Made by a program: the position numbers and the translations under genes. DNA of 64,000 nt from Paraspadella gotoi (lineage: Eukaryota; Animalia; Chaetognatha): assembly GCA_051294375.1 (NCBI GenBank), contig CM119267.1, positions 18,330,992 to 18,394,991 on the forward strand. Direction: 5' to 3'. Shown piece by piece: positions 14,501 through 57,900 of the stretch. The notes under the pieces were generated by a model that saw nothing but the letters and a program-made list of their open reading frames with translations, was not told where the DNA came from and searched no databases. The stretch's first letter is position 1; every line of letters begins with the position of its first letter.

Positions 14501-17500
14501 TATTTTTCGAAAGGCTTTTCCGTAGGCCTAACCAATTTTTGTCCGGGCAGAACTAGAAAACTCAAAGCATTTGAGCGCGTGAGCAAAACCAAGTTCCAAA
14601 AGGGTTTTAGATCGGAGCAATTCGCCGGAGGAACCGCGTTGGGATCAGGCGCAATCGCGTAACTGGTGTTATTGCCGTTGGTCGAGAGCGTTAATGTGCA
14701 ATTTGCTTTTTTGAAATTCACGGGCCATCGAGAAGGAGCAAGAGCGATGGCACGCGCGTACGCGAAAAAACCACTGGACGATTTTTGGGTCTTTAGTCTG
14801 CAGAAAATAAAAATATCAACTAAAACCAATTATTAGTTTTAATTTTTATAATATATCGTATTACTTTCACAATAAATTTCAAGCAACGCATACATACATA
14901 GTGTAACTACCGTAAACGTTTAACCAAGGAATTCAAATGTTTAATGTCGATGCTACTAATGAGACTTTTCAAAGAATTACATTTCGTTACCAGTAAAGAA
15001 CAATCTGAATAACTTGAAATCGTAAAATCAGTCCGTGATCTTGGAATAACAATGAAATATTAAGCACGACCTACTTGAACGTTGCCTCGATGAAAAACTC
15101 CCCGAGAGGTTTCGTAGGATTAAGATCAGATCTGTTGCCGGAGGATTCGTTGCCCGAGGATTTTATGCCGGAGGATTCGTTGCCTGACGAGTTGTGGCCG
15201 GAGGAAATGAAGATAATATTATTTTTCTCTAAGAGACTGGAGCTGCTTGGAAAGGCGCCTTCGATGAACTCGTGCAACAAAACTCGTCTCCTGGTTAACC
15301 TCTCCACAAGGATTCGCGACTTTTTTTCGGCCTTGACGCCGCCGCAATTTTTCGCGTTTGAGGCGCAGCGACTGCGAAAGTCGAAAATCTTGTACCACTC
15401 TGCACGGAAAAGAGGGGGAACGCTAAATCATTGTTTAACGCCCCAATGACTAATGATTATCTTATCACGTGATTGTATTTTCAGTTGACGTGAATACGTG
15501 ATGCTACATAGACAATATGTCTCCACGACCAGTGGTCGTCGTCGACCACATATCAAGATAAACCATTTTGTACTTAGTACTTAAGTGTGATGCTTCCGCG
15601 CAACATCGTCTCTTGGCCGAAAACCATCATAATAAATAGAATTAAAAAACCATCATAATAAATAGAATTAACGAAAATGATTCCGAATTAATATAGTTAT
15701 GACCTAATTATTGGTTAAGATTGTTTAATTATAGTAGTAATTATTGTTATTGCAGCATGCAAACAAATTCTATCTATATGAAAGATAAAAATAAATAAGA
15801 AATAAAAAAGACTTTCTTTCTATTTAAAGTCATTTCTACTAGTGCGAATCCATAAAAACTTGATTTCAACCTCAAACATACTTTCTTACCCACAAAATTG
15901 TACCTTAATACACCCATCCAATCTACGAATAATTGGAGTTTAAAAATAAGGGGAGAAACAGACACGCGGATATCATTCTCTTACACAATTTTTCTTAATT
16001 CGATTTTCTTAAATGAATGACCAAGACATGGGGGGCGACCAACAGACTAATTATTATACAGGGAGGTCCAGCTCTAATGGAACTACAGCACAAAAATGGT
16101 TGGGTTAATTTTACTTTCGCCGACCGGGATTAGAGGGTTTAGGGTTGAGGGTGGTTTAACTTTTTTATTTCACATAGGAACATGTTTCGGCCTTATGTAT
16201 AAGCCTTCACCAGCGTTTGATAAATCAGACAAATTCTTCTCTTAACATTAAGTCAGAGAGAGAGAGAGAGAGAGAGATTGAGAGAGAGAGACAGAGAGAG
16301 AGAGAGACAGAGAGAGAGAGAGACAGAGAGAGAGATAAAGCTTCCAACAAAGGTTGAGAAAAGGACAGTGGTCAGATTGAGGACAGGTGAAGGTAAGGAG
16401 AGAGAAGAAGAGGAAAGTGGTTGAAATGTGAATGGTGAAAATTTGAAGAGACAGAGAGAGAGAAAATATTTACATTTTGTAATGTACAACAAAGATAAAG
16501 AAATAAACAATTCCATAACAATAAGTAAACTTAATGCTTAAACTAGTAGATTTGACTGAGAATATTTTAACTAGTTAATAAATTTTAATTAAAGTTAAAT
16601 TTAGAATTTTTACAACGGTTTAGTGAATGGGGTTTTAGGGTAATTTGGAAATAATTTATTTTATGGTAATCCCAATAGAGCTGGACCTCCCTATATTAAA
16701 AGTATAAAAAATACCCTTGAGCTTTATCTTTAGTAAGCCTGGAGCCTTCTTGAAGGTTATAAATCCGCCCACGCGTTCGACAGATTTCGGATTTATTAGC
16801 GGCAAAGGTATTAAATACTGAAAGCGAAGGTATGATTACCAATGTATCTTTATTTAGATAGTGACTTTTAAAAATGATTACCGCAGTATATGTTTCGTTT
16901 CCGGTTAAATGTAGTTCTCCGACCATTTGGATTGGATCGATGTTTTTAGCAGAGTATAGAATGCTTTTATTTCTTTTTATTATATCGAGTGCTGCAAGAA
17001 AATCAACATACGACCACTTATTCCTTGAAATGGAGCCCCCGCAAAAAATTATGTATTCAAAAGTTTAACCGACCGATGATAAGATATCCACTTTGCCATG
17101 GTTGAAAATTGAAGGCGCCGATTCGGTAATTTTCATTGAAAGGTTCTAATCGCTTCAAAGAGAAGAAGTTTCCCGCGTCGATGGATTCCCAAAGGCGAAA
17201 ATTTGTTAGCACATAGATGGATCCGGATTTCTGGTTCGCACCGACAAACGCCAATTTTTCCCCCTCGACAAAATCGAAGAGAACGGGCGCGAACTCTGGG
17301 CGGGATCGGAGCCGCAAAGCAACAACGCCCTGACCAAAGGAGAATGCGGTAAAAGCAAAACTGTAGGTATGCGTCAAAACTCAACGCGAGCGAACCTCCA
17401 CGGTATCGTCCGAGTACTTCAACTTGCCAAGATCGGGAATGACGCGGTGAACAACAAGGCAATATTTTCCATTAGATTTTTGGTATAGAAATATAACGTC

Positions 17501-20144
17501 GTTCATGACGAAGTTGAGAAATACGAAAGATAGTTCTTTCAAGCCTAAATTTTGAATGCTAACTAGCTAATAACTTAGCGAGCCAGGTTGAGATGAAGTA
17601 GCAGTTACTGTACCAGACAAAATTTGACGGTTTTGCTTCTTCGTCCCAAAGAAGGTATCACGTAACGTTCTAAAACCTTGAGAGATAGTTTTCTTAACTG
17701 TCCAGTTTGGTTCGATACAGGTTTTGGAATTATTCATTTGATGTCCCAACCAGACGTGGCATGTATCGATGTTTTTCGTGGAACCACAAACAACAATAAT
17801 TTGAACAGAGAGCGGATAGTAGTACTCCTTACGTTCTATGAAATATAACGGAGTTTTAAACTAAAATGACTTAGATATTACAACGCAAGGATTAAAATTT
17901 TTACTCTCCCTGTCGAGTTTCTAGGGCTTGATTTATTTGTTTATTGTAAATCTTACCCCCTGAAATTGTCCATTTTTTCCCCCCAATTTTTTCTTCCGTA
18001 AATTAAACTTTTTTTTTCCTATGAGGATTTGTCTCTTACTTTCTTTACTATAAGCATTTTCTTTTTAATTTCTATAAAAATTTGCTTTTTTGTCTTTACC
18101 CTCAAGAACTTCATTTGCATTGCTTTACACAAAATACTAAATTTTTATATGTTTGATATATTGATTGATATATAAATAAAGAAGCATTTTTAAAAATAAA
18201 ATAACAATCAAATTTAGTTTAAACAAAAAAACAATCCTATTAAATTTTCTTTATGTTTTCACCTAGAAGGGTCTTCAAAAAAAGTTGTTATAAATGAAAA
18301 ACATTTCAAATAAATTTTATCTGCACCTACTAGATTTTTATTTATACCTGCTTTTCAATAAAATAATTGTTTTTTAAAATTTTTGTCGTAGTAAGTTGAG
18401 TTTAAGCTCTTGAAAGCGATTTACATGTATTGGCGCAGCCACTGGTTTTATTCTTGCTGGTTCATAATAAATTGAAATAAAAGGTGTTTTTTACCTGGAG
18501 CTTATTTCTTTCGGACCGCTTATATTTATTTTCTTCTAAAAACTTAGAACTTAATGGTTTATGTAATATTCTGTTTATCCTTTCCTGATCTCGTAATTAT
18601 TGCGAGCATGTTAAAATAAAACACCCAAATCTCACCCGGTAAGAAGTTGGACGTGACGATACCTCCCACGTTGTTAGAACCCCTGTAAGAATCGGGAGAA
18701 GTTCCCAGACTACAAGTGAACTGATGATAAAAATGTCCGTTAGTAGGCAAAATATTGTGGTATTCAACGTCCACGGTGCCTAGAAAGACCAAAATAAGGA
18801 GTAAACTGAAGTGAGAACCAGTATGCCCGCTGTTCGAACCTCCGTCGCGGGACTTTCGCATGGAGCAAACAAAGTTTTCCGAGGCTATCAGGCCTTTGTC
18901 GGTTTGAAAGGCGATGAACGTGGACGAGACGGCAAACTCGGTGAGATCCAACTTCCCCTCGCAGCTCTTTCCCTTAAAGCTTTTTCCCAGCGCCGCGCGA
19001 CAGAAACTAGAGCTGGCGTCGACTTGCCAAACACGCGTCGCTCGAAAGTCGGACCGGTCAACATCCATCAGGGTCGCAATGAGGAAAATCTGCGTTATTA
19101 GAAAAATTACAAGAGGAAAACCTGGAAAAAACCTGGGTTATTGCGAAGAAACCACTTCTAGCAAATGGAGTATTATAAGAAAACCTTTCCGCCGGACAGG
19201 AACGCAATAAAAGCCGAGTGGTATAAGCAGGTGTGCTGTCTGAAGAAAATCTTATCGATCGGAACATCGAACTCTTTACGGTCTTTGACGTGGCGACCAT
19301 AGCGCACGTTCGGGTTCAACGGTGGAATCGTTTCCAGGTCGATAATCCAATAAAATGGCGAGGTGAAGGTTATCATATGTACTTGGACCATCGAGTAGGA
19401 AAAAGTGTGACGTTCAGAGATCTCCACTATTGGAATGTGGCAGAGAGTCAGGTTGCAAAAAACTCTTCAGGTTGGGTGAAAGAAACGAAGGATGCAAGTA
19501 TGAGTAAGAAAAAAACAAAGAAATTAACCTATAAGTTCCCGCTCATCAATCCAAAAAATCGTCTGCCTTTGACCAGAAACATTTCGCACCCAGGTAAGCA
19601 AGAGAGTATTGTTAAACCGTAAATTCTTTTTTTTTCCCTTTCCAACACCCCCTGCCCCAGCTCACTGGTCGGAGATTGACTGATCCTGAAAAGGGAAGTT
19701 CGCGGATTTCTTGTCCTTCTCAAAGGTTATCTTCGTGTATATTAAGTCGCTCCCGGAGCATCTTTCTGGGATGGTCATTTCGACCAGGTTATAGTTGTCT
19801 AGTCGCGAATGCCATAGGGCCAACGTAGGAAAAATGGGACCATCCTGCACGTTCATTTCGTTGGCAATTTTTCCCACAAAACGAACGTAGATAACGATTT
19901 TTTTCTGATCTGCCGCGTCGAAATGTAGACAAACATAAAATAAAGGATTAGTGTCGAAACGAAGAAAACTAAATATGCGATATTCACTTTTGCCGAAGGT
20001 GATCGCGCCGTTTTCAAATATGGGTTTTTCATCGCAGACATTTGGACCAAAGTCGTCCCAAAAAATTTGGAGCCGAGTATCGCGATTGTCACTTCCTTGG
20101 ATGCAGAGAGGCCTCCACAAAAGAGTCAGAAGCAGAAAAATCAT
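11555..20144 (-). CDS. CATSPERB: CatSper channel auxiliary subunit beta
   Basis: Signal peptide MIFLLLTLLW. Motifs FIAFQTDKGLIASE, LWESIDAGNFF, NYRPPSDEGRAIPRTTNIYNA, GCKNYTSRKKC...SDC and IRVKGSGLYHW...FSFC occur in CATSPERB order. The last exon and stop are uncertain. Confidence 0.8.
12665..12861. mobile_element. MITE-like inverted repeat in a CATSPERB intron
   Basis: ttttcattatgagataactgtgctataa...gcaagaacaattttgccaaatattt is mirrored by aaatatttggcaatattgttcttgc...ttatagcacagttatctcataatgaaaa. Confidence 0.7.
16060..16692. mobile_element. TIR-bounded composite insertion containing TTAGGG-like repeats and a hammerhead/GA repeat
   Basis: Terminal inverted repeats agggaggtccagctctaatgg and ccaatagagctggacctccct. 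Confidence 0.7.
16176..16218 (-). ncRNA. Degenerate minimal hammerhead ribozyme motif
   Basis: CTGGTGA-A-GGCTTAT/ATAAGGCC-GAAA-CATG-TT. The core has an A-to-G change. Confidence 0.6.
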
Positions 20145-20413
20145 TTCAAAAGCGCCTAGTGAAAAAATGAAAATTTACCAGTACGTTTTTTTACTCAGGA
20201 AGCTAATAACATACACAGGCGCAAAATATAAACAATAAGCCTTCATTTTTATTGTTACAACGGGAATACGTAGACGTGAGGTATATACAAATTCAAGGGA
20301 TTATCTTTTAACGCTGCTCATCTTCAGCAGTCCAAATTTATTGAGAGAAGTGACAAAAGATGCATTGACTAGGATGGTCTTCCTCATCCAACGCCGTGCG
20401 GCGGCGTCGCCTC

Positions 20414-22561
20414 TTACTCCATTTTGCTCATCTCGAATTTCGTCGTCATGATCTCCTCGTCAGAGTCCAACAGGCTGGGCAACGCGGCGTCTGCCACCGA
20501 GGTCGGAATATTTTCCTCGACCCATCTGAGATCTTCTTCGAGCTTTTCGTCGACGGTCTTTGCGGCGTCCTTAACTCCACCACCTTCGCCGATGTGCGAT
20601 CGGAGCTTCATGCCTTCGTAGGCCTCAGACATCATCGGCTCTTCTTCAGGATCGGCGTCTTCGGCATCGTCGAGCAAAGCCGAGAACGCGTAGCGTTGGT
20701 TGTTGGCCGTGGGGCGCCACAACACCATGATGACGGCCAAGAGAATAGAAAACAGCGCGTGCCAGAAAGCCTCGTCCACCCATAGTTCCTTCCAATCGGT
20801 CAGACACTCGACCACCTTGTGGGAGCGGATGGACCAGATCATGAAGGCGACCGAGGCCAAAACGGAAAATACAATCACGTTGGCCAAATGGCGGAAGAGG
20901 TTTAGTTTCGTAGTGTTGCGGCGCAGACGCAGCGTTCGCATGGTCTGAACGAGGGAAGTGAAGACCCACCAACATATTCCGGCGTCGATGACGGCGAGAG
21001 GAATCTGAAAGGGAAAAATCCTTATCCTAAAAAATCGAAGGACCTTAGCATAAGTTCAAAAGTTAAAATCGCGATCGATATTCCTTGTGTCGGACCTGCG
21101 CCAAAAGCAGCTGTTGACTCTGATCCGCGGAATGTTTAAAATTCCTGAGCCCGGCTTCGATGCTGCCCAACACGAAATAGACGCCGCCCAGCAGCAGGAT
21201 TCGATGAAGGAGGGGCCCCAGGCGCGGCTTCACGATACCGAAACCGAGCGATACGATGATGACCAGCATCCGGGCCAAAGTCCGTTTCGCACACGACACG
21301 ATCTCGGCGAACAAAACTGGTTAAATGATGGATATGAAGATGGAGATGCACTTGCAAATAATCTATAGCCCCCATTTTATTCTCACTCACCCGCTCCTGG
21401 GACTGAAACCCCGGAGGAATTAATTGTTTCGTATTCTGCATAGAAAACTGCCTTTTCCAACATGCCGAGGATAATGACCCCGCCAATCCAGAACTGAATT
21501 TGCAAAAGGTCGCGCCACTGGCAGGACAACGCCACAAGCCAAGAAACTCCGAATATCACGTACACCAAGCACATAATGCCGAAAAACGGTCGCTGAAGAT
21601 ATTAAGATTAGAATAAATCTAAAATCTAAATCCATTTGAATTTGGTAGCTAGTTGTACCTTGGGATAATCTGCAGCAGACAAGTAACCGTAAGAGGCTTT
21701 CATCTCTACGCGCATTTCGACGCTGATGGATGCGTTATCCGAATTTGGAGTCACGCCGACGACGAAGAGATAAACACCGTCCTCCCAGGTCTTAGCCACC
21801 ACGTGAGCGTCTTTCTTGACCGGCTTCTTGGACACTGAGGGGGTCGCCGGCTTGGATGCCTTGGAGGGCTTGCCCGCAGGTTGGCTCGGGGCCGCTCGCT
21901 TGGCTCGTTCCGCGGTCGCTGAGGCTATGGCCTGCGACGCCGCGGAAGTGGCTGCCGGCTCGACCGGGCAAACGCTGGCGTTCTGAAGAACCACCACTTC
22001 CTCGAAAACGGCTGCAAATTACGAGAGAATATGCGATAAGCGATTTCTTTTTCCGACTTTCGAATCTTTTACCTTGTGAGCCATCGCAACTAACGGTGGT
22101 TTTCCCGCTCATCCACTCGACGAGGCAATAAGCAAGTTTCCCGTTAAGTCGCCTCGATTCGAAGGTGCCCGGTTGATTTAGATATTGCTTGGATCTTTCC
22201 TCTCGCGTTTGTTCCGTCTCGCTGAGAAGAGTGATGTATTCATCGGCGCAACCTGAGACAGAGAATGAAAGCGTGGGTCAATCATGTTCTGAAATTATTT
22301 TCGGGTCGCGTTTAACTCACCCGTCTTTCTGAGGACCCAGTCGACCACGATCTCGAGGTTCTTATCTTCAGCGGCGCAAGAGATCTTGAGCGAGACCGAG
22401 GTTTGATGAAACATGCTCTTGGCGAAAGGGCGGACAAATTGACCGACTGAGTCGATTTTCTGGTCAAATTTGCCGTTCTCGGCGTAAGGGAAAACGACTG
22501 TCGGGACGGCCAGGAGGACGGCAAAGAAAAGGAGGGGTCGGAGATCTGCGTAGTCGCCCAT
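20414..22561 (-). CDS. TMEM87A: TMEM87/GOST seven-TM protein
   Basis: Signal peptide, YGYLSAADYP, WRDLLQIQFWIGGVI, KRTLARMLVIIVSLGFGIVKPRLG, LWRPTANNQRYAF, C-terminus FEMSKME. The A/B paralogue cannot be distinguished. Confidence 0.93.
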
Positions 22562-22925
22562 CGTCTCGGAAGCCTTCGATAAAAGGATCAGCGTCGGTTT
22601 TACGTATTCCTAAATTCAAATTTCTGTCCTTTTCTTTAAGTTTTGGCATTAACAGTGTCAAAATAACAGGAGTAATATAACGTCTTATCCTCGAGTATTA
22701 ACATTGGTTTTTTTTTTAATGTAAACACGAACGCTGAAAATGTAACAATATTTAAAAACTCATGATTTTTTTATACCAGTAACAAAACGAATAGGTATAA
22801 AAGGAAAAGGGCGTTGAGTCAATGCTATAGAACTGGTACAAAAATTTAAAACAAAACAAGACTATTGAAATTAATAAAAGAATCAGTCAAAAGATGGGAG
22901 GAAATATTGTAAAGGGATCACGGAT

Positions 22926-29457: not shown

Positions 29458-29566
29458 TTTGGTCCGGCAAAGTTAGATGCTATTTTAAACTAATTAAAAA
29501 TTTACCTATATCAATGAGGTTTTTTTGCTTATGATATAAAAATCGGTCATAACAATTATACCAGTT

Positions 29567-30617: not shown

Positions 30618-30690
30618 ATATTTCAGCATTTTAAACTCGTCATAACTAAGCGTTAATTCGTTAGAGCTAATATCAAGAACATCATTAAAT
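30618..30690 (-). ncRNA. Intronic box C/D snoRNA, SNORD44-like guide
   Basis: C box ATGATGT, guide TATTAGCTCTA-A, C' ATGACGA, D box CTGA, terminal stem TATTT/AAATA. It lies in the neighbouring intron. Confidence 0.75.
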
Positions 30691-40080: not shown

Positions 40081-40434
40081 GTTTTCACAATTTTCTACGA
40101 GAGAAATTTTTAAAGAAAAACTAGTTGTCCACTTTGATACGTCGTAATCGACTTTTTTAAAATTGTATTGTATTTATGTCACAACGATTTATTTTTAAAA
40201 TTATTTTTTATTATTATTTATTTATTATTATTATTATTTGTTATTATTATTATTATTATTCCTTTAGCTAATTTTTCCAAGTCTACTTATTTATCTTTGT
40301 TGTACATTGCCAAATGTATCGATTTCTCTCTCTCTCCCTCAGTCACATTTTCACCATTTCACAAAACTTACTCCTTCCCTGTCTTTACCTTTACCTGTTT
40401 TCACATCTGACCTTTACTCAATTCTTTGTTGGAA

Positions 40435-40474
<40 letters not shown>

Positions 40475-41208
40475 CCTAACTTATGTTAGGGGTAGCCCCA
40501 CTCAATGGGGTGCGGCAAAAATTTGAAATGATTACATGCTCAAATGAAAATTTATACATTTTTAAGTATACTTTCAATGGACAAAAAAATTCTTATATGG
40601 CTTTATACCCAAATAATTATAATTATTTAATATTTATTTATAGATAGGAAAGGCCAATTTTTTTTTTAATATTGAATTTTAACACCAGATTCAGATAGCT
40701 CATAAAAAGTTGTCTGCACAAAGTATTATTCTTTTTTAAATATTTTCATGATAATCGAGTCAAAAATAAGAAAAACCATGAAAAATCGTCATCATCATCT
40801 TTCGAAGATTTTATCAGTTTTTTATATTTTCACTTTGTGTATATACTTTCAATTTCGTTTCGTTTCGAATCTAGGAAGAAAAACAATTCTTATTTGTTTT
40901 GTTTCAACGAATTTTATTTGATTTTATTGTTTTTCTCCCTATATTTTTCACTCAAAAAACGTAGGAATTTTTAAAAGCTGTAATTATATTTCATGTTTAA
41001 TTTTTTTTGCTCTATCAGAATCCATCAAAAAAATTTAAGTTTTCAAAAAATTATTTTTATAATGCAAAAAAATATAAGTAATATTTAATGTATTAATCAA
41101 GACGTATAATGTAAATTTTTAGACAACTAAAAAAACTAAAATAGTCGAAATTTTATATTATCTATTGAGTTGGTCCCTACTTATGTCTCTAAAAAAATTG
41201 TCAATACC

Positions 41209-41254
41209 AAACGCTGATGAAGACTCGCAAAAACAGAGTCGAAACATGTCCGTC
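41209..41254 (+). ncRNA. Minimal type I hammerhead ribozyme, intact core
   Basis: acg-CTGATGA-A-GACTC/GAGTC-GAAA-CATG-TC-cgt. Confidence 0.82.
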
Positions 41255-41784
41255 TTGTTAATTGTTAATTCAAAATTAAATCGTTGTAAAATCTAACAAA
41301 ATAAACCTTTGTTTTTCGCTAATCCCAAAAAACAACGAAAAGAGAGAAAATAACACAAAATGTATTCATGTCATAAAATATTGATTCCATTCGCACCTTT
41401 ATAAAATTCAAAATGCCCCGCTTTCAAGTCTATAATCACATGCAATATATCGTTCCCAGTCCATGCACTGATCTATGTCGGATCCTTACCAACGCTTTTC
41501 CATGTGCATGACGCAAAAATTGCGTGGCCGCCAGATTCCAAACCTTACCGTCAATTAAGAATCAGCCAGCCTCTAACTTATCGACGCAAACCTAAAATCA
41601 TAACCGGTCACATGCAATAGAACAAGTTTGAGCAAACAATGTCGGATCTGCCTACGATAATTAGCGGTAATCAGCTAATCAGATCATCACAGACGAATGA
41701 AACCCTGAAACAGAGATGATAAATGACGATAATTCTTTCAATTTGTGTTCATAACAGATCGTACCATACCAAACCAATGGCTGC

Positions 41785-42315
41785 GCATTAAAGCGTAGCA
41801 AAAATATTAAAATCAAGTAAAATCAAAAATCACGAACAGGCTTGTACCTGTGAACATTTTCAAATAAAAAAAAAAAATTTTATTTTTCAATTTTCGCATA
41901 CTCACCATAGAAAATGTCAAAATTTTAAAATGTTTTTTTCTTATTTTTAAAAGCAGATTCAAATACATTACAAAAAGTTGATAAAAGGAAATAACTCTTT
42001 TTAGAAAATTATTTATTAAGTGGGTCAAAATCCTAAAAAAACTTATTATTAACCTATATTGAAATTTTAGTATAAAAAATATAGTTTTTTTAAATTTTTG
42101 GCTAACTTATAAAATAATTTTTATCAACTTTTTATAAGGAATTCGTATCTGCTTTCAAAACTAAGAAAACATTACTTTAAAATTTTAACATTTTCTATGC
42201 GAAAATTGAGAAATATAAATTTTTTTTTATATATATCAATGTTCTTTGGTCCAAGACTGTTCATGATTAACTGTTAGAATTTTGATCTGCAACCTTCACT
42301 ACGCCTTACTGCGTA
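41785..42315. mobile_element. Degenerate foldback/MITE of about 530 bp
   Basis: Mirror arms, e.g. catagaaaatgtcaaaattttaaa / tttaaaattttaacattttctatg and aaaaagttgataaaa / ttttatcaactttt. Confidence 0.65.
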
Positions 42316-43360
42316 TATACATGTAAATCGCTTGCAATGGATTAAACTGAACTTTTACTATGGTACAAACGCATAATTTTTTCAACTCGCACCATTTTTT
42401 CAACTCAACTATTTAGTATTTAATCAATTAACTAATTAAAACTTTTATAAGTAAGCATAAATAATAAAATTTTAAGTCAACGTGACTTTGGTTTTTTCAT
42501 GCAAACTCATTTCCACTCCTCTATTCAATCTAAACTTTATATTCTGCTCAATCACACACTTTCCTACTTACACACAAAATTATCATCTCATTCTATCCAT
42601 CCAATTATGAATAATTTGAGTAATTATGGGTTAAAATTAATAAAAATATTCAAGAAAATGTGATTTATATTTTTTTTCTATTTTAAATAATAGACACATT
42701 TGAATCCGACAAAGTTTTAATTAGATAACCAGTCTGGGTGTCATTCTGTTCGTTTTTCCAAGCTCTTTTTAACTAAAAAAGTTTTATTTAAAAAAAAAAA
42801 TTTTCGCCCGAGCCAGGGGTATTGAAGAGTCAAAATATGGAAATTCACCATTTTTAGTATTTTTTAGCTTTTTCCAGTTAATTTTTTTAATATAATAATC
42901 TTTAATCAAGTTAATTACTTCTGATAATGATTTTAATTTATCCTATTTAACTGTTTTTAAAACATTCATAAAAAAATATTAGTTTTTAGCTTAAGCCAAG
43001 GGTGTTGAAGAGCTAAAATGTTTAAATATTTTTTTTTAATATTTATAAATTATAATTTATTTTTTTAAAGATAACTTATTTTAATCATGGTAATGAAAAT
43101 ATTTGATATCTTTAAATGCTTTGAGGCTTACCACAGCTTTAAGTTAATTAATTTAATAATGTTTTTTCAAACTGAAAAACCCAAAAACTTCTATGATCCA
43201 AAGCAATTAATTTTAATTTTTAATCACAAAATATAATTGTTGCAAGATGAAATTATTTAAATAATATTCAGATATTACTATTGTATTAATCCTTTCAGTT
43301 TCGTTGAGTTGAGATTTAAGCAAAGTTCGAAATTAGTTTCTTCAACGATTTTTATTTTGT

Positions 43361-43403
43361 ACGGACATGTTTCGACTCTCTTTTCGAGTCTTCATCAGCG
43401 TTA
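43361..43403 (-). ncRNA. Minimal type I hammerhead ribozyme, intact core
   Basis: acg-CTGATGA-A-GACTC/GAGTC-GAAA-CATG-TC-cgt on the minus strand, followed on the plus strand by (GA)n. Confidence 0.82.
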
Positions 43404-43432
43404 ATAAATATTTTACAAATTTGTGCAAAAGA

Positions 43433-43483
<51 letters not shown>

Positions 43484-44582
43484 AGGAGAGAGAGAGAGAA
43501 ACAGAGAGAGACAAAATAATACATTGTGCAATGTACAACCAGGAATAAATTTAAACTAATAGTGAATTTAACAATTAATCTAATAATAAATAGATAGTAA
43601 TGAAAGGAAAGAAAGTTTTTAAATGTGAAATGATACATTTTTTGTGAGGGATAGATAAGTGACTGTTAAAGTGAATAATTAAGAATTATGATAGAGCTCC
43701 AAATGATAGATATTACTATAAAAAAAAATTATTTACTTTATACTATATAAATATAATTTTATTTAAAAAATAATTTAAAAAATGATATCTGCATATAAAT
43801 TTTGTACGGATAAGAGTAATAGTTTGGTTTAACGCTATATACAAATATTTTGTTATTAAATAAAATAATTTTTCTTTAATATACAATAATTTATAAATTA
43901 ATTATTGCTTTTTACTTTTTTCATTAAATAATTGTTTAACAAAGAAGTTTTGTTTTTTTCACAATCTAAAAACACAAGGAAAAGAAAATTATGATTTATA
44001 AAAGATTCATTAAAAATATCTACCTTTTATAGTCCGATTCATATATTTAAATTAATTCATAAATTCATTTAGATACTATTTTACTATATAATAATATTGG
44101 TAATTGTTAATTAATTTACTTGATTAGCAAATTATTAACAAGTTTAAATTATAAACATTGTGTTGAACTTGTTTATTGCATTTTTAGATTTAGAAAAACC
44201 TTTTTATGTTAACAAAAAAATTTAAGGAATTTGTTAACAATTTTGTTTTTATCGTTGTTAACAAATTCATTAAATTTTCTTTGTAATCTCTAACCCATAA
44301 AACTTTTCCCATCTATAACTTTCCAGTTGGGTATAACTACAACAACCTTGTTGATCGTAACGCTAACTTTTACTTATTCAATCTCAAATGTTAAAATTAA
44401 ACACTAACCCTTAACCTAATTTTGCTAAAATTGCCATAACTAGAACATTAGTTTCAGTTCGTTAACAAAATTATTATTTTCTATGCGATATCGCAAAAAA
44501 TCTGGATAGTGGATATCATTTTAATAATTATATCTTTGTTATAACAATTTCATTATATGATTGTTGTGATTCTTTGTGATCA

Positions 44583-44625
44583 ATGCTGATGAAGACTCTC
44601 AACCACAGAGTCGAAACCTGTCCCT
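44583..44625 (+). ncRNA. Minimal hammerhead motif
   Basis: CTGATGA-A-GACTCT/AGAGTC-GAAA-CCTG-TC. Confidence 0.7.
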
Positions 44626-45358
44626 ATGAAATAAAAATTCGTTGTTACACATTAAAAATCTGTCATTATATGATTAAATTTATGAATTGCTTTGTTTTTA
44701 AGATGAATCTTTAAAAAAAAAACTTTTTAGAAATAGGTCACCATTTTTTTAATGCTTTTAATTATAAAATATTAATTAACTATGTTAACTTAAAAAAAAC
44801 ATTTAAAGTTTTCAAATATTTTTATTATCATGATTAAAATATGTAATCCTTAAAAAAATAGCAAATTATTATTTGAAAATATTAAAAAAGACAATTTAGA
44901 AATTTTAGCTCTTTAACACCCCTGGCTTAAGCCCTAAACTAATATTTTTTGTGAATGAATGTTTTAAAAATAGTTAAATATGATAAATTAAAAGCATTAT
45001 CATTAGTAATTAACTTGATTAATGATAATTATATTAAAAAAATTACTGAAAAAAGCTAAAAAATACTCATAAAAGGTGAAATTCCATATTTTGGCTCTTT
45101 AACACCCCTGGCTCGGGCGAAAAAGTTTTTTTTCTTAAATAAAACTTTTTTAGTTAAAAAGAGCTTTGAAAAACGAACAGAATGACACCGAGACTGGTTG
45201 TTTAGTTAAAACATTGTCGGATTCAAATGTGTCTATTAACTAATTTCCACTCGCACGATTTCTTCAAAACTTTATATCCAGGTTCGTCACACACTTTCCC
45301 ACCCACACACAAAATTTCATCACAATCTATCCATCCAATTATTATTAATGAGTGTAAT

Positions 45359-45727
45359 TATGGGTTAAAATTAGAGAATTGACAAAGTTTTTGTTTGCAA
45401 CGAATTTTATTTTTAATTGAACAGACATGTTTCGACTAGCTTTACAAGCCTTCATCGGCGTTTTGACAGTTTGGTTTGAAATTTGTTCATAAGAAGGGGG
45501 AGAGAGAGAGATAGTAGGGTAAAAGTTTTCCAACAAAGTGGTGAGACAGAATAGTGGTCAGATGAGAGGACAGGTCAAGGTGAGGACAGAGTGAAGGCTT
45601 GTAAAGCAAGTCGAAACATGTGTGTTCAATTAAAAATAAAATTCGTTGCAAACAAAAACTTTGTCAATTCTCTAATCACTACTAACAACGAAAAAGAAAG
45701 AATTACTTCAATATGGGTTAAAATTAG
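45359..45727. mobile_element. Penelope-derived short insertion with inverted hammerhead-bearing ends
   Basis: About 45370-45453 is mirrored at 45592-45675. A tatgggttaaaattag direct repeat lies on both sides. Confidence 0.75.
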
Positions 45728-45822
45728 TAAAAAGATTTAAGTAAAAGTGACTTATATTTTTTTCATTTAAACTCACCCACACACAAAAATTCATTCCAAT
45801 CCAACCATCCAATCACGAGTAA

Positions 45823-47066
45823 TTAGAGTTTTTTGCTAAAGGGGGACGGAGAAACGGACATCATTTTTTTTGCATAATTTTTGCGCGTCAAAAATCCCCG
45901 AAATTTCCCGTCATTGTCAGGGTCAGGAGTGTTCATCGCACGATATAAGCTCTCCAGGGGAATCCACGATATGGGGCTTTCCGGCCAAGTGTCTAATAGC
46001 AACACATAATATCTCCGGCGTTGTCCTTCGTCGCCACAAGATCGTTTGGCAACCGCCACGATGACGCTGAAATGGCCGCAAAATGGAGGTTGATCCAAAC
46101 TTTTCATATCGTAGTTCACGATCAAGGATCCATTTTCACTGATCTGTGAGACCAAAGCCTCCATGAACATGTGTTCCGAAAATGCAGGGACACTATTTGG
46201 TTCGTTACGACAGAGATTGTATTTCGCTCCCAAGAGTGTACAGACTTGGTCCAGGGTCATGCCATTTGGAATTATATCTACTACCTCCTGAGAGACTTGA
46301 GGAAGCAAATCTTCTTCGCTCATTTCCCCCATATATTTCAGTTCATGGTCCCCTATTTTTTGCGACAACATTGCCGCGTGAGCTTGTGAGCTCACCATAC
46401 CACAGGTCGAACGACCGATTTGTTTTTTGAAGCACGAACCCCAGTCGGATTTAGATGCAACTATAATCTCGCTGTTTGAGGAGAATCGTAATCACAAATG
46501 CTTCAGATAATCAGTTAACGATTACTATCTTAAAAATAAAATTGATTCTCACTGTTGTCCGTCCTCACCCTCGTCTCAATGGCTGAGCAGGCTAAATAAT
46601 ATAGTTTCAACCTGGGTATCCCGGTTCTGTCTTAAATGTGACGGAGACGGTTTAAATATGCTAGTCACAGGAGGCGGTCACTGAGGGTCCCTAGCCCCTA
46701 CGCCAGTTGGTGAGATACCCTGTGCCCCGAGTAACACAGGCAATCCTCCCATTGCCATAGCTCTGTTTTGCGAGGAGTTGTGTCATCCTATCAAAATACA
46801 TTAATACTGCAACTGCGATTACAAGAAAGGAATTATAAGACTGATTAAAAGCCGTTAAATATTATGTCCACCAGCTGAGATTAAGTAACGTAATAAGTAA
46901 CATATGTCATTTGTGATTTTGACTCGAAATAATTTGCTGTTTCCTGAGCTTCCACGAAACTTGAAGGAACCACATTTAGGCCGAAATCCTCAGTACAATT
47001 TTTCAAGACACCCCTGGCCTCTAGCCTTTTTAAATTATTCACCACAACTTTTAAATATTCGGCCAT
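45823..47066 (-). CDS. Phytochelatin synthase-like protein (catalytic domain only)
   Basis: Last exon (from about 46472) has FKKQIGRSTCG (Cys), GMTLDQV, GHFS (His), LLDT (Asp) and WIPLESLYRAMNTPD...RGFL. The 5' exon joins are uncertain. Confidence 0.82.
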
Positions 47067-47193
47067 TTCAATGGAGTTATTTTTTAAAGATTCTTTCTTG
47101 TATTTTTGAGTATTACTCTAACTGTAGGTAAAGCCAAAAAAGAATATTAAAAAACGTTAAGTTTATATACCAAGACATATAATCTCAATAACA

Positions 47194-48812: not shown

Positions 48813-48937
48813 TTTAAAATCTTTAGTTAACTGAAATATAGAATAAAATAAACAGAAAAAGACAAGCAAGGCCGCGAAGTGACTCAAATAACCGTGGGCC
48901 GGAAAAAATTGCCCAACGCCTAAGCCGTCAATAATGA

Positions 48938-51900
48938 TTAGATTTTATCACTAGATTCAGCATTTTCGTCTTCAATTTGGGCCTTATCGCTGGAATCCTC
49001 GAGTTCAGATAGTGCTGCATCTTTCTGCTTCCAAAACTTTTCCACGAACGACTCGTGATCCCTGAGGAATGCTTCGGCGGTAGCAAGGACGTCGTTAATT
49101 TTTGCCGTGTTTTCCGCCGAAACTTTCTAAAAATAAAAATGTTTTAAAACATAAGAATTAGGGATCCTCGAAATCGCTTAACAAAAATCTGGACCCATGA
49201 CAAACTTTGATACTCAAAAAATCAAATTTAATACAGGAAGTTTTATGCATAACAATCTTAGCTTAATACATAATAAATTCATAAAATATTACTCATTCGA
49301 CTCAAATATCCTAACAATAATAAAATAAGGAAAAAGAGCGAAAGAGAGAATTAAGGGAAAAACAATTAAAAATAAATAAAAAATAAATGAATAAAAAAAT
49401 AAAAAATAAATAAAAAAATAATAAATAAATAAAAACTAAACAAAGGCAAAGAGAGAAAAATTAAGAGAGCCGAGAGAGAAAATGAGAATAAAAAAAAATC
49501 AGGGAGAGAAATAAAAAGAAGTGAAAAATAAAAAAGAGAGAAAACGAGAAACAATAGGAAATGAAAATGAGAAAGGGAAAACGTATAAGTTAAATGAAAA
49601 TGAAATGAATAAAATGAATTTAAAGAAATGAATAAAATGAAAAGAATAAATCGAATGAATGAAATTAATTGAATAAATTAAATTAATTTATTGAATTTAA
49701 TTTATTTATTTAATTAAATTTAATTAAAGAAATTGAGTGAATAAATGAGTGAGAGATAAAGAGATAGAAACAGAGAGAGAACGAGGGGAAGAGAAAAAGC
49801 GAAATAACACGTGTATTTCACTTTAATCACATATGACATGACATGACATGAGTAAAAAACTTTCTTAGCCCTTGCCTTGTAATTATGACATGCACTGTAT
49901 CGATTGCGACAATAAAAAAAAATTATTGAAAAAATTAATTTACTAGTTAAAAATGCAATTTTTTCCAGTTTTAATTTCAAAAACAATCAAAAGAAGCGGC
50001 ACCTTTCGAATGCAGACTCGTCGGTTTAGTTCTTCCTTAAAATTCTTTTGCCAGTCCCTGTGATGCGCGACGGCGGCTTCCGCGCGATCCGCCATCTCCT
50101 TTATCTTGGCCACGCGCTCTCTCTTGAGTATCATCATGCGTTCCTTGTGATCGAGGGCCGATCGACAGACTTCCTTCACAGTCTTATCCATTGTATCTTG
50201 CTCTATCGTGATCCTTTGTCTAAATATGGGCCAAAGGAACAGATTTAAAACAACGATATAAACATTTTTTAAAGCATCAAGGCCTAACCTTTGGTCAGCG
50301 AGTTTACGCTGCTCCTTTTTAAAATCCTCGTTGATTTCGGAATCGTCTTTGTTGATGCTCTGGAGTCGAAATCGAAGTTCTGCGATGTCTTTCTTTTCCC
50401 TCTCCTGTTCGGTCTTTATCGTCTCGATCTCTTCCGCCATTTCACGCTTCTTCTCTTCGAATTCCGTCTCTAATTTTTCCAGGCTTTCTTCTTTCGCGCG
50501 AAGCTGCATTGTGGTAACAAGGAAGTCGAAAAAACGGTCATTTGTCGAAGTCGAACTATATTCGCGATCGCTCACCTCTGTTTGTCGCGACTTGAGATGA
50601 TCCTCCCACTCGTCGAATGTTCCTTTCAGATCGACTATCTTAAGCTCGACGTTGTTGCCTCGATCTTGAAGACCCTTTTTGACGCGAAGAAGAGCTTGTT
50701 TCAATCGTCCATGGATGTCAGCGACGTTAGTGGAATTGGCAAAAAGCGAGAGATCGTTGCCGAACGCGTTGGCAGCGGTCTCAGGGACGAGGTGCGCTTC
50801 GCGGGCCCTGTCGGTATAAACAACCAATATAGAAAAATGTATGGTTTCTGTATATGGCTGAGTGTGTATTGAAATTATTCGATGTATGACTCTTGACTAA
50901 TACCATTCGAAATAATTTCATGAGGGCGTAATAGGACTAGTTTTTATGACCGTACTGATATTACTGTATGACCAGTGAATATTGAGTACATATGTATATT
51001 GTAACTTACGTCTTCATGTAATGTTGCTTCAGCTTCCGTGACAATGCTGACTGTGTTTCAGAATTACTATAAAACCACTTATGACTAAACATACTGACAA
51101 TGGCCCGAGAAGGAGAAATAAAACTAACTGTATAGTTCATCCCTTTAATAGAGACCGACAAATACGTAGATTCTCTTGAACAAATACAGAACTGTCAGAA
51201 GGCTTCATATTATAAATTGAGGTGCCCGTTTTTTGTGACCAGAACACGTTCCGAAAAAACTACTGGACAAAATTCATTTCCTATCTGAATACAAATAATA
51301 ATATTTATGCTTTTAATCTATCAAGAAGAATCATAAGAAACCTCTCATGCAATATCAGTTTTCAAAAATCAGTTCTTTGTCTGGCTATAATTAGTGCCTG
51401 AATCTAGATTCAGATTTTCAAAAAACTTTCAAAATATGATCAGAACCATATTTAATGGAAATTAGATACGCAGCCGGTGGGTCAAGTATGCTCAAAAGGT
51501 TAGTAATAAAAATCGAGTGACTGGAATATGCAAATGAGATTAATGCGTCATCGTAAGGTTGAATATAAGGCAAAAAAGAGCATAAACAATTTAATAATAA
51601 TTATTTTTAAAAAACAATTAATACATATGTTTTTAATTTGTTTTTGATAATTGATTATGTGAATTCTGTATAGTAAAAATATTTTATAAAAGCTAATTTA
51701 TATAACAATATTAATATGGCTCTTAAAGTCATTGACCTTTGACAAAAACTAATTCTTCCTCTGAAAGTATGTATCAATATATGGTAAGGATCTCACTATG
51801 CTCTCGTCCCGGAAAAGATGTAAGGTGAGGATGTATTTGGTAAAAGGAAAAGGGAATAAGGTTACATAAAAGGGGAGAGGGGAGAAGGAAGGCTTGAGGA

Positions 51901-54900
51901 CCCCGAGATCGTGAGACGAGAGTGAGGACGATCCTTGACTCGGGGATGAAGAGGAAGGAACAACGAAGGGAAGAGAAGGAGTAGAGGTTGAGAAGGGGGA
52001 GAGAAAACCCATCTTTCAATAAGCTTTATTTTATGTTTCTATGTCTTCGTAAAATTCAGGCATCTAATATGTTTTTTCGATGTGAAAAGTGGCTCCTTTT
52101 TTCGCCGTAGTGTGCAAGATAATGACAGAGCAGTTCCTTCAAACATAGTGAAAGGACCTTCGTTTTGTTTTAAATTGAGAGAGAAAACAAAGTTTGTTTT
52201 TGTTTACAAACAACAAATTTTATTTTTTAAACAAACATGTTTCAACTCTTTTTAAAGTCTTCATCAGCGCAATGTGAATTTAAATTTTGCCAAACATCAT
52301 GATGAAGGGAGATAAATGATACTGTTGGTAATGTTCCTTTAAGACATTTGAACTTTTTTATCTCAAACCCGACAAGACACTATGAAAAGTTACGTGAACG
52401 GCCAGAAAACGTAAAATGTAAAAAAACCAGAACAAAACAAAAAGTAATATGTAGAATGAGACATTAATGATTCCAATCAGGTAACAGGAGAGAAAGAGAG
52501 GGAGTGAAGATAAAATCGCCTTCTGACCTTTTTTGGTCATATTTTTCTCTCTCGGTCCCATTGCAACGCCGGTCATTTCGTACGTTTACTTTTAGAAATT
52601 TGGTGACCAAATTTTATTCGTTTTTGAACCATTTATTGAATCAACGTCGCGCGTCCGAAAACCGTTTTTTACGGGTTTTCGCGACCAGATATTGTCACGA
52701 TTTTCTTTTTTTGCTACAATTTTGTAATGACCAAGAATAGACGTTTGGACCGTTTGGGAACTCGCGTTGTACTTTTACTAGAGATATAGTCAGTGAAACT
52801 TTTGTCAAAACCTCTTTTTGGACGGGCGACCAACGAACGCCAAGGACCGCAAAGCATGGAGACTCGGAACGTCTCTACAGAGAGTGAGAGAGAGAGAAAG
52901 AGAGAGAGTAAGCGTCCAACAAAGATTTGAGTAAAGAAAAGTGTTAAGGGTAAGAACAGCTGAAGGTAAGGACAGGAGAGACAGAGAGAGAGTGAATAGA
53001 AATAAAGTCAGGTCATTTGAGAGTAAGTAGGAAACAATGTTTGGAGAAAAGAATAAGACTCGAAACATATCCGTTTATAAAAATAAAATTTGTTGTTTGT
53101 AAACAAAAACAAACTATAATTCAAGTTAACAGTACCAAAATGGTTGTGAGCAAAACAAAAAACTGATTGAACTGTATCTCTCTCTGTCTTAATAAACTTT
53201 TTATCATTTCTTTACTGTTTCACTATCTTTCAAGATTAAGTTACAAGAAACCTTTAGTTTAATAGTGTTTTCATGTGATTTTTATTGGTTAATATTATTT
53301 TTTTTATCCTGTCAGCTAATCAAACGATACATATTAGCTTTTTAATTTGATTTTATATTATTTATTTAAATTTTTAATTAAGATTAATAAGTTTTTATTA
53401 AATTAAAATATTACTGTGAAACGTTAATTCTCATTTGGAGCATATTTGGCATTTTATTTAATATTTGCTGAAAAATGTTCTACAATTTGGTACCAAGGTA
53501 ATATTCCCAAGGTTTGGTAAAGATATTCCAACCCATCCTATAGGAAGCTTGCCAGGCTACTATAATTCAGGCATTTTATGATATATTTCCTTTTTTTTAA
53601 ATCTTAGTAAATAACTGAGTATCTAGCAGGGATTGAATTAATTTTTTTTAAAAATGTTTTACTGTATCTGAGTTTTCAAAAATTATAACGCACTTGATAT
53701 ATTAGGGAGATCTGTAGTCGGGAAAACTTCCGCTTCATAAGTAAAAGCCAAAATGATATTTGAAATAATTTTTTTTACACCAATTTGATAAACGCTTTTA
53801 TGAAATAAATTTCGTTTTTAAGAGCACTTTTCAACTGATTGGCAGAGCTAAATTCTTTACCTTAACAACGACATAAAGTAAGAGTCAATTTAAAAATAAA
53901 AAATAAGTACAATACAAAGGCCACGATTCATTTAGGAACGGGCAAAGAATTAGGCAAACCATTTGGCCGTTTATCCAAGGATCGAGTGGAATATTAGGTG
54001 TTGGAAATAGCGATTGGATGGAATTCGGCGGCGGCGCAGATCTTAAACCGTGATCGAGCACCGCCCCCGCAAAACGTCGGAAAAAGTGAACGTAAGGCCA
54101 TTACGTTTCTGAAGCGCAATCGAGCTATCATGGTTCACCCCGCAGATAAAGGCAGAGATGCGGCAGTCATAAACGCTCATGACTATAAATCGAAAGTTAA
54201 CGCAATGTTATCGGACGGCAAAGTCTATACGCCTCTCTCAAAGGCTCCCACCCTCGCTTACAGGGTGAGAATCCAGACGGTTACGAAACGCATTCGTGAA
54301 TACTGTCCCCCGTCAGTATTTCACAGAGTCAACCTTGACTCTACGCACTGCGTAATAATGAATAACAATAAATAAACAGATAATAGCTTAAAATAAACGC
54401 TATCAAAAAATATAAGAAACCCAAATATAAACCATATGTTGAAATAGAACACAAATTAGAGAATTATAATTTAATACAAATGAAAAGGAAACTGACAAAA
54501 TCGATTTAATTTGACATTGAACCATGAAATAAGGAATTAAATTGAAAATAGCGGGGTAATTAAAATGAGAGCGTGGAAAATTTGGTTACCTGGAGTTGAA
54601 TTCGTTAACCAGTTGATCGGTAGTTCCTTTGAAATTTGCAATCTCCATTTGTTTTATGCCAACCAATTTGCTGAGCTCTTCTTTTTGTTGCAACGCGTCT
54701 TTGTTGCGTTGGTACAGCTGACTACGCTCCAAATTAATTTTCTTCAAAAACAACGAAAGTTTATAACACATTTTTGGAAACGGTTGAGGTTCATAGTCCC
54801 TTATAAAGACATGCCTGAAGATCCTCCGGCCGAAGATCCTGAGCATCGTAGATGACCTGAAGTCGCTTCTTATCGTCCGCCAAAACCATGGTTTGTTTTT

Positions 54901-57900
54901 CGAGTGCCTCGTTGTCTTTTTTCAAGGTTCCCACCTTAAAAAAAAAAATTATATTGAATTACGGATTACATAAGAATATAGTGAATTCCCTACCATTTGC
55001 TGGAGCTTCTCGAAGTAGTTTTTTTTTTCATCCACGTGCTTGTAAAGCTTTGCTCTGTCCTCTTCGTGGACGCCGAGGCTACGCTGCGCTTCGGCAAACG
55101 CATCCGGTTCTGATTCGATCCTCTGCTTCTTCTGCGTCAACTTTTCCAACTCCGCGGCGAGAGTGTGGGCGTCGCCTTAAAGAAAATAAAAATCGATTAA
55201 AGCGATTTAGTACGAATTTAGAAATAATTTTTTTAGATATTACCTCCTAGACCGTGGACAAGTTTTTTAATGTCATCTTCGTGCTGCTTGATGCAACCCT
55301 CATATTCGTCCTCTCCATCCATGAACGCTTCGTATGTGTCGCTAACAAATCCCCATTGAAGTCTTTTAATATGTGCTTCCTGATAGAACAAGTTTGAGCA
55401 AACAATGCCGGATCTGCCAACGATCATTAACGGTAAGCAGCTGATCATACCTACAGACGGACGGACGGACCAACAGACGGATGGACCTACAGACATCATT
55501 TTTTCCCATAATTTATCATTAAAGGTTTTTATTTTTAATTCGAAAACGAATGTAATTAGCAGTTAGCCTTCATCAGCTCAAAATTTGTTTTTAAAATTCT
55601 CAAAGATTTTTCCCTAAAAGTAATGGAGAGAGAGAGAGAGAGAAAGTTTTCCAACACAGAATTTAGAAAAGGACAGTGAGAGATTGAGGACAGTTTAAGG
55701 ACAGTATAGACTGGAAGAAAGTGAGGGAAAGAGAAATGAAATTTAAGCCAACTACAGTGAATTACATTTGATTAATGAATAAGACAATAACAATGTTAAA
55801 TTGGTATAAACTGTGACATTAACAATTAACTGAGATAAATTAAATTCTACATAATGAAATAAAAGTAAATAAAAAGTGAAAAATTAAATAGAGTAAAAGG
55901 GTAAGAAAAGTTAAACAAAGTGCATAAAGAGCTCAAAATAGAGCTTCCCCCGCTCTCTCTCCTTTTCCCTCCGTTACTTTTTTGACAAAATATGTGAGAA
56001 TTTTAAAAACAAATTTCGCGCTGATGAAGGCTAACAAAATAGCCGAAACATGTTCGTTTTTTCATGTTAATTACATTCGTTGTTGAAATAAAAATAAAAA
56101 ACTTTTCCTTTAATGCTACCTACGCAACGAAACGAAAGAAATAAAACCATGCACATTGCACAATTTATCATAATTTGATGTTCTGACATAATCTCAGTGA
56201 ATGACCGACAAGATTGGGGGGGGCGGACCGACGGACCGACAAAGTGAATCATATTAAAAATAAGACGAGTTTTTCTTCGAGGAGAAAAATTAAGAGAAGA
56301 ATGTACGAAAGGGAAAATAAGTCTTTTCAAGACGACCAACCTCTTCTGAAGCGTCAATCTGCAGTCCACCCCCGGGAAGCAAAACTTGTTCACCGTCCAA
56401 GGCGAGGGTGGTCTGAATTGGGCCGATCATCCAGTGCAGGACTCCCAATAGATAGTGCCATGAGTGAGGGGAACCGATGGTTTTAAGGTGAGAGTTCGAT
56501 ATGTTAAAAGGATAACCAATATTCTGCAAAGGAGCGATTGGGAGACAATGAAGCAGACTTTTCTCAATTGCCTATCTTTACGCGAGCTATAAAGGAACCT
56601 TAATCTTATCCAAGAAAACTTGGGCTTTGTCGTGCGATGGCAGAAAAGTAAAAGCTTCATCCACGAACCCGTGGAGAAATTCGAAAATCCTCCAAAAGTC
56701 GGTGGAGCTGGGACCTTGGACGAGATCGCGCATTTGTATAGGATGTCCGTACCCGTGTTCCAACAGAAATTTGTGGACGTCGCGAGCGCAGTGTTGCCGG
56801 GCTCCTTTGTCCGAAAGATTTCGAACGTCAGTCAAAGGTTTGTTCGTGCCCAAACCTAAATTTTAGTGAAAATAAAATAATAAAATAAACGTAGTTTAGA
56901 GAACAAATCATAAAAGCACAGCAAGCTCACGTTTACCTCCAGAAGATCTTCTGAAACCTTGGCCTAGGGCCTGATTCGACAAACTACTCTGTCTGTTGCG
57001 CATAGGACCTAGGAATGTGGAAAAAACAAGTTTGAGCAAACAATGTCGGATCTGCCCACATTAATTAGCGGTAATTAACTAATTTAAATAATTAATACAA
57101 CTATATAAACTAAAATAATAATTCAATTAATGAATTAATTAATATGATCCGAAAAGTTTGTTTTGAGGTCTTTTTGTCACTATGACAAAAGCAACGACGA
57201 CGATGATGGCGACGACGATAATAATGCCGATAACGATTGACTTGATTGATTTATTAAATAAGATTAATTACTACATCTTGCATTTACATTTAATATAAAA
57301 AGAAAAAGAAGCATAATCAAATAGTGAAACAAGTTTTTTGTTTTTTCCATTTAAACTCATTTCCACTCGCCCGATTCCATCATATCCAGCTCAATCACAC
57401 ACTTACCTACCCACACACAAAATTTTTTTCCAATCCATCCATCCAATCACGAGCAATTGGAGTTTTTTGCTAAGGTGGGACGGACGGACGGAGGGACATC
57501 GTTTTTTTTTAACATAATTTATCATAATTCGATGTTCTGACATGATATAAGTGAATGCCCGATAATATTGAGGGGGCGGACCGACGGACCAACAGTGAAT
57601 TATAGAGTCGGGATCTGCTGATAAGCAGATCTGACTAAAAATAGTGAAGAGAAACAAAGGATCTTCGAGTCCAATTAAGAATCGAAATGCTGTTGTTACC
57701 TGGCGCAACGGAGGATCTGCCGACAGACGCAGACCTCTTTTGTGGAAGATTGTCGGGACGAATTCTTGCATTCCCTAAATAACGAGTCAGACGCTAACAG
57801 TAATAAAACCCCACACATACGCTTTTATTTTACTATTATTTACCTGCCACACCGGAAATACGCGGAGTCGGCCGGGGTATACTGCTTCTTTCGGTTGATC

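Follow-up and report, generated by a model that had tools for sequence, protein, structure and literature searches.

Penelope-type minimal hammerhead motifs in a 64-kb window of Paraspadella gotoi lie in a dispersed, apparently non-coding repeat

Minimal hammerhead ribozymes (min-HHRs) were placed by Cervera and De la Pena 2014 (PMC4209133) in the pseudo-long terminal repeats (pLTRs) of metazoan Penelope-like elements (PLEs), and the passages on activity in that paper report no cleavage for a single min-HHR and little for dimers. The insertions themselves, in the descriptions given by Arkhipova et al. 2013 (PMC3846280), have target-site duplications of 8-10 bp, a 31-bp tail and palindromes at the pLTR 5' ends, and self-priming is discussed; the sections of Craig et al. 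2021 (PMC8557442) that deal with hammerheads regard their role in PLEs as unclear, with Naiads spreading without them. Nonautonomous PLE derivatives and solo pLTRs have already been published (PMC8557442, PMC3846280), and another class, the non-LTR retrozymes, is defined in the relevant portions of PMC7229834 and bioRxiv 10.64898/2026.07.22.740005 by tandem head-to-tail units together with circular RNAs; their hammerheads are mostly canonical. Here we present a hammerhead-bearing repeat of the chaetognath Paraspadella gotoi, seen within a 64-kb stretch of contig CM119267.1 (the window, to which all positions refer) and in contigs of public sequencing runs. It is an ordinary new example of an already known element type, and its copies are mostly decayed. 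That both the motif and the mobilisation are of PLE type is very probable, and is common to the explanation we favour and to descent from coding PLEs. Judging from the sequence, we favour, at somewhat better than even confidence, a dispersed short non-coding PLE-hammerhead repeat, a pLTR-type unit that would be copied in trans by a PLE reverse transcriptase (RT) and GIY-YIG endonuclease.

A first-pass annotation of this DNA had listed seven full and three partial hammerhead motifs, and all ten are present, about 5 nt or less from where it had put their low coordinates. They are not a chance set: the exact pattern CTGATGAAG-N14..30-GAAACATGT has four matches in the window and none in 100 dinucleotide shuffles. 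Positions within the motif follow the hammerhead numbering, cleavage triplets are read by the NUH rule, and the coordinates of full sites run from C3 to N17:

16213-16179, minus strand: full motif, A6 changed to G (CTGGTGA)
41214-41250, plus strand: full motif, intact, GUC
43398-43364, minus strand: full motif, intact, GUC
44586-44622, plus strand: full motif, loop III CCTG, palindrome broken
45458-45424, minus strand: full motif, U4 changed to C (CCGATGA)
52267-52234, minus strand: full motif, G10.1-U11.1, stem II broken
56021-56054, plus strand: full motif, intact, GUU
45592 (plus), 53052 (plus) and 55576 (minus): partial motifs, from the covariance model and sequence comparison

The covariance-model scan that the annotation had proposed recovered these sites and no further ones: a model built from eight of them found the remaining two partial sites at E 7e-4 and 0.024, and nothing further in the whole window below E 0.06 among the 29 matches listed. 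An Rfam scan gave no match at E<=1, which is not counted against hammerhead identity because minimal variants apparently lie outside the Rfam models.

The motif traits are those of PLE-type minimal type I hammerheads, and the repeat that carries them is dispersed and retroelement-like, as had been proposed. The type I core CUGANGA...GAAA...UH shows four deviations in 133 positions (19 positions in each of seven copies), an extra unpaired A follows A9 in all seven full motifs, G10.1-C11.1 pairs in seven of eight aligned rows (G-U in the other), and helix III consists of A15.1-U16.1 and C15.2-G16.2 around a 2-nt loop. The core CUGAUGA/GAAA, the unpaired base between 9 and 10.1, the G10.1-C11.1 pair, the palindromic 15.2-16.2 with its loop and a short helix I are likewise described for min-HHRs in the motif sections of PMC4209133, as is their occurrence mostly as single copies, with opposite-strand pairs 100-700 bp apart; the variable subfamilies with compensatory changes described there may have a counterpart in the stem II changes seen here. 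The present motifs differ from those descriptions in a helix II of 5-6 bp (7-8 in Schistosoma), a helix I of about 3 bp (4-5), a GUU triplet in three of seven, and a kept 3' motif, TTCGTTG..CAACGAA, not seen in the abstract, results or discussion of that paper but which published motif alignments could already show; furthermore, no copy in the window is seen joined to an open reading frame (ORF).

Several parts of the earlier description stood in part. All seven sites it called full are present, but only four match its shared consensus exactly and three (41214, 43398 and 56021) are intact, the other four being damaged in the core, in loop III or in stem II. Both cleavage triplets it gave occur (GUC in four of seven, GUU in three), and the helix III palindrome ACATGT is found in six of the seven full copies but is lost at 44586. 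The claim of stem II covariation divides in the same way, all figures coming from eight related rows: both partners change in three of six pairs, 89.6% of cells are paired, and the covariation score of 0.272 exceeds 498 of 500 shuffles (0.193+/-0.027), a rank that is not a probability, but the pair count and the type count lie within the shuffle range (262/500 and 283/500 shuffles). No two intact motifs lie close together on one strand in the window, which, with the four lesions, gives present-day cleavage no support.

Constraint is concentrated on the ribozyme. Pairwise divergence of the 19 core positions is 6%; the 5' block diverges by 21% and the near flanks by 36-38%. Contig depth along copy D (43282-43707) peaks at the core, where run X7 gives 7235 against 113-514 at 43284-43346 and 140-484 at 43515-43703; in run X4 part of the leader is almost as deep as the core. 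On the core, depth exceeds that of long unique contigs about 400- to 600-fold (X7, 7235 against 11.6-20.2; X4, 168097 against 221-300), these figures being summed contig depth and not a copy number, and we read them only as many similar cores elsewhere. Between one tenth and one half of the contig records matched to copy D continue as unlike sequence, and within the core none of the listed substitutions reaches 10%, an outcome that the 80% cut-off favours. From the sequence pattern we infer that the ribozyme would have been retained in source lineages as their flanks diverged, and that the four lesions would postdate insertion; unrelated PLE families could have this core as well. Two patterns specific to the family each returned 0 loci in scans of metagenome DNA.

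The unit is apparently non-coding and about 0.45-0.55 kb long; the longest copies are 0.43-0.49 kb, a range that holds four of six measured long arms, two of them with uncertain ends. On the ribozyme strand it is composed, in order, of a T-rich leader, a near-palindrome, a pyrimidine block, (CT)n, a spacer, the hammerhead, an A-rich signal, an inverted motif and an A-rich end. The 16-nt near-palindrome TACATTG-CA-CAATGTA is present in copies A, B and D (copies are lettered as listed below), the four long copies start 121-172 nt before it or its position, and the pyrimidine block terminates in TTTGTTGG in A, B, E, F and H. The spacer between (CT)n and hammerhead is 35-45 nt. Downstream of the hammerhead come an A-rich signal resembling AATAAA, then TTCGTTG and CAACGAA with about 45 variable bases between them, and last a short A-rich end. 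In every copy the ribozyme spans the cleavage site in mid-copy, 40-110 nt from the 3' end, and two kinds of 3' end are found: tail-less ends fall between the arms of the inverted motif, 40-49 nt past the cleavage site (C, the left arm of E, the right arm of F), and tailed ends fall just past its second arm, at 82-110 nt (B, D, the right arms of E and H). Stop-free frames reach at most 24-107 codons in A, D and H, the long ones crossing the repeat tract, and tblastn with 150 PLE-like proteins matched no copy.

The first-pass annotation had described a common purine-rich (GA)n core beside the copies. The tract is instead a pyrimidine (CT)n upstream on the ribozyme strand, purine-rich only beside the inverted partial arms. 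The stub at 44586 lacks it, and a 692-bp insertion lies between it and 41214. The annotation also overlooked the strongest support for its own proposal, namely target duplications for which an empty homologous site exists, head-to-head inverted arms of which one alone bears a tail, and a PLE RT relic in the window. The ten motifs come down to about seven insertion events, listed here together with the 692-bp insertion and a tail-only remnant:

16146-16628, minus strand: copy A, about 483 bp, with leader, palindrome from 16486, pyrimidine tract, (CT)n and hammerhead 16213-16179; no tail
40182-41360, plus strand: copy B, about 487 bp net in two parts, 40182-40486 (5') and 41179-41360 (3'), the latter holding hammerhead 41214-41250 and the tail
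40487-41178, no strand given: DNA-transposon-like insertion of 692 bp with short imperfect inverted ends and an 8-bp duplication ACTTATGT; later, splits copy B
40838-40919, minus strand: tail-only remnant with A-rich signal and TTCGTTG..AACGAA, no ribozyme; nested in the 692-bp insertion
43282-43707, minus strand: copy D, 426 bp, with hammerhead 43398-43364, palindrome at 43535 and tail; 12-bp target duplication AGATATTACTAT
44563-44662, plus strand: copy C, a 100-bp stub with hammerhead 44586-44622 and a 13-bp duplication; no tail
45375-45711, both strands: insertion E, long arm 45375-45591 (minus) with hammerhead 45458-45424, head-to-head with a 5'-truncated arm 45592-45711 (plus)
52150-53115, both strands: structure F, with hammerhead 52267-52234 (minus), 5' block 52879-53051 (minus) and inverted partial arm 53052-53115 (plus); in an NDC80 intron
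55520-56161, both strands: insertion H, long arm 55520-55953 (minus), head-to-head with arm 55954-56161 (plus) holding hammerhead 56021-56054; in an NDC80 intron

Insertions E and H give the clearest view of how the copies arrived. The arms of E are 98% alike over 85 nt with a 35-40-nt tail on the plus arm only, and an exact 16-bp duplication (45359-45374 and 45712-45727) bounds it, a match equalled in none of 2000 random window pairs, the measure by which the chance level of target duplications was judged for each copy (150, 1000 or 2000 pairs). With E removed, its flanks align unbroken to the repeat at 42555-42690, an empty homologous site. The arms of H are 84% alike, the 46-49-nt tail is again on the plus arm only, and the hammerhead of the long arm has lost its 3' half (C3 at 55576); its 10-bp duplication AATTTATCAT is weak by itself (305/2000), and with H removed the flanks rejoin to the uninterrupted repeat at 57470-57610, a second empty site. 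Structure F, in which the arm at 53052-53115 is 89% like 52191-52253, is from its sequence probably a single rearranged insertion and a third case of inverted arms; its ends and a target duplication were not found.

Copy D lacks about 130 nt of the pyrimidine tract, and a duplication like its own arises by chance in 84 of 2000 pairs. Its 5' end is the point at which the listed contigs of all four runs compared leave the stretch (43704-43706), and a high-depth contig (X7 record 23) ends 6 letters beyond it. The duplication of copy C is matched by chance in 122 of 1000 pairs in the wide window searched; a narrow window, picked after the fact, gave none in 2000. Like that of D, it ranks as moderate. 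For copy B the candidate is 13 bp with one mismatch and weak (32/150), and the ends of copy A rest on a candidate that is not significant (114/150). The tail-only remnant matches a profile of five other tails at nhmmer E 2.6e-7. Joining D and C into a single inverted insertion was considered and rejected, there being a separate candidate duplication for each. The density of one motif per 6-7 kb given earlier holds as an average, but the roughly seven events are uneven, six of them within 41.2-56.2 kb (binomial p about 0.001, for an interval picked afterwards).

The insertions share with those described for PLEs (in the insertion sections of PMC3846280 and PMC8557442) 5' truncation, a head-to-head inverted truncated copy at the 5' end, a one-sided tail of 30-40 bp, short target duplications, a palindrome near the pLTR 5' end and solo pLTRs. 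They differ from those descriptions in duplications of 10-16 bp rather than 8-10, tails of 35-49 nt, a long (CT)n inside the unit, and no partial tandem with an ORF.

A relic of a PLE RT lies in the same window:

54049-54330, plus strand: PLE RT relic, region around the DKG motif, within the ORF relic 53998-54372

An HMMER search with it gave 868 relatives at E<=0.001, and a word-based protein search passed none of 20 candidates. RVT_1 was found in 8 of 21 long relatives tested, one of which also has a C-terminal GIY-YIG domain, and the atlas match is to DUF8422 (0.97). The tblastn search with the 150 PLE-like proteins had its sole window match at 54049-54270, and found no ORF for RT and GIY-YIG joined to a pLTR in the window. 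The relic lies 0.9-1.2 kb from the nearest hammerhead copies and is joined to none.

Several observations weigh against a separate short repeat. The seven monomer folds are no more stable than shuffles (z -1.9 to +0.7), and in the three cofolds tried the hammerhead dimer did not clearly stand out as the best structure. For A and B the 5' ends depend on the non-significant duplications, and the leader regions are partly alike, with three of six pairs beating all or all but one of 200 shuffles. The unlinked RT relic may belong to another family, and the contigs would leave at the copy D junction under an origin from coding PLEs too; a single variant can also end a contig. That origin, in which the copies are 5'-truncated 3' ends (pLTR debris) of coding PLE families with a long non-coding end and no separate short element exists, is a serious possibility, if not a probable one. 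Most single min-HHRs are read as truncated PLEs in the discussion of PMC4209133, which also describes the opposite-strand pairs mentioned above, 5' truncation is visible here (C at 100 bp, the E long arm at 217 bp, the tail-only stub), and the window does hold a PLE RT relic. However, no copy reaches coding sequence in the tblastn comparison, the long arms cluster as noted, and the high-depth contig stops just beyond the copy D 5' end. That the family is a separate non-coding element, as earlier proposed, and not a set of PLE ends is suggested rather than demonstrated.

The same annotation had also invoked retrozymes, and descent of the copies, as monomers, from a non-LTR retrozyme with tandem arrays elsewhere is unlikely; such arrays would yield self-cleaved linear and circular RNAs for reverse transcription by a PLE. 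The likeness is real: the retrozyme descriptions in PMC7229834 and bioRxiv 10.64898/2026.07.22.740005 include a non-coding unit of a few hundred bases with low GC and a type I hammerhead, likely PLE mobilisation and known monomer copies. The unit size and the GC of 31% in copy D agree with the first of these, the second reports monomer offspring and a PLE origin, and the last 17 letters of the H tail match the copy D 5' palindrome at 15 positions. But the ribozyme here is minimal and the retrozyme tandems described in PMC7229834 carry canonical ones, the circular fold of copy D is not above shuffles (z -0.8), and a possible tandem continuation after 53120 was rejected (4/200 shuffles in one of 72 tests, not found by profile search). 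The label is unsupported because no head-to-tail array is seen anywhere in the window; the lack of any joint on copy D in four runs is weak evidence, because the (GA)n part was skipped and the contigs are short. That the host has recruited the motifs for regulation, as ribozymes within introns or untranslated regions, is very improbable: F and H do lie inside NDC80 introns and E about 100-450 nt downstream of a phytochelatin-synthase-like ORF, but four of five copies on the minus, host-gene strand are broken, the intact 56021 is antisense, and copies are located inside other repeats. Selection against copies on the host-gene strand was considered and rejected (strand difference not significant, p 0.46).

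For the favoured short repeat, the following course is proposed. The unit would be transcribed from its own 5' end, and a PLE enzyme would nick AT-rich DNA and copy the RNA, uncleaved or rejoined, by target-primed copying. The template is taken as uncut or rejoined because every copy spans the cleavage site, and uncleaved RNA is plausible because a helix III of 2 bp should be too short for cleavage by a monomer; both fit the cleavage report in the activity passages of PMC4209133. The inverted arm could come from a template switch or from self-priming. In source copies the ribozyme would cut as a dimer only, through the ACAUGU palindrome, processing longer precursors, and the core would therefore stay under selection; acting in source transcripts only, it would leave inserted copies to decay neutrally. 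A transcript across E or H would likely fold the arms into a long duplex. A more specific version, which we consider doubtful, is a SINE-like (short interspersed element-like) fixed-length monomeric PLE parasite with its own 5' end, uncleaved RNA, a core kept by selection in diverged subfamilies and a 3' motif that sets the two ends. In the titles and abstract openings listed by literature searches, no fixed-length monomeric min-HHR family and no tail-setting hairpin was found.

Other repeats surround the insertions. An element with inverted ends (..GGGAGGTCCAGCTCTA..) at 16055-16700 encloses copy A; AGCTCTAT, considered as a common 5' mark in copy A, was rejected as part of this element's inverted end. 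Contigs are very deep near 40817, inside the 692-bp insertion in copy B, which may be hAT-like. Inverted arms of about 440 bp (42688-43122 and 44796-45238, 88% alike) enclose D and C and are high-depth and foldback-like or similar to miniature inverted-repeat transposable elements (MITEs), and an imperfect 440-bp palindrome at 41828-42268 is also MITE-like, with contigs that skip 41786-42317 suggesting an empty form. The near-palindrome end of the H tail lies at 56145-56164. A deep repeat family with GACG/GGAC runs, the deepest sequence in the stretch to which contigs were matched, hosts insertions E and H:

15814-16016, 41617-41681, 42487-42676 and 45238-45880: deep GACG/GGAC repeat family
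55383-55520, 56159-56253 and 57021-57604: further stretches of the same family

The window is gene-dense, its host genes including MED27, NDC80, TMEM87A, the phytochelatin-synthase-like ORF and an ANKLE1-like ORF. All recognisable host ORFs (1-64000) are on the minus strand with short intergenic gaps, which may mean operon-like transcription. The TMEM87A exon has its best named matches at 64-68% (nemerteans, hemichordates and others) and forms a long branch with four proteins that are 85-87% alike. A match to the CATSPERB C-terminal domain at 13463-13807 (E 2e-9) marks a CatSper beta-like gene, and the phytochelatin-synthase-like gene is a single ORF at 45826-46491 (Pfam E 2e-12). Spliced MED27 contigs occur in runs X5 and X6; they give no level, ends or strand and were not used.

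With these findings, one more invertebrate lineage joins the many animals known to carry minimal hammerheads of the PLE type. If the short-unit explanation holds, the repeat would be a compact natural test of the hammerhead's role, in which duplication-bounded copies keep an uncut ribozyme, the core persists as its flanks diverge and the 3' inverted motif separates tailed from tail-less ends. If the SINE-like version is true, that motif would offer a cis-signal, open to test, behind the PLE tail of 30-40 bp, which so far lacks an explanation.

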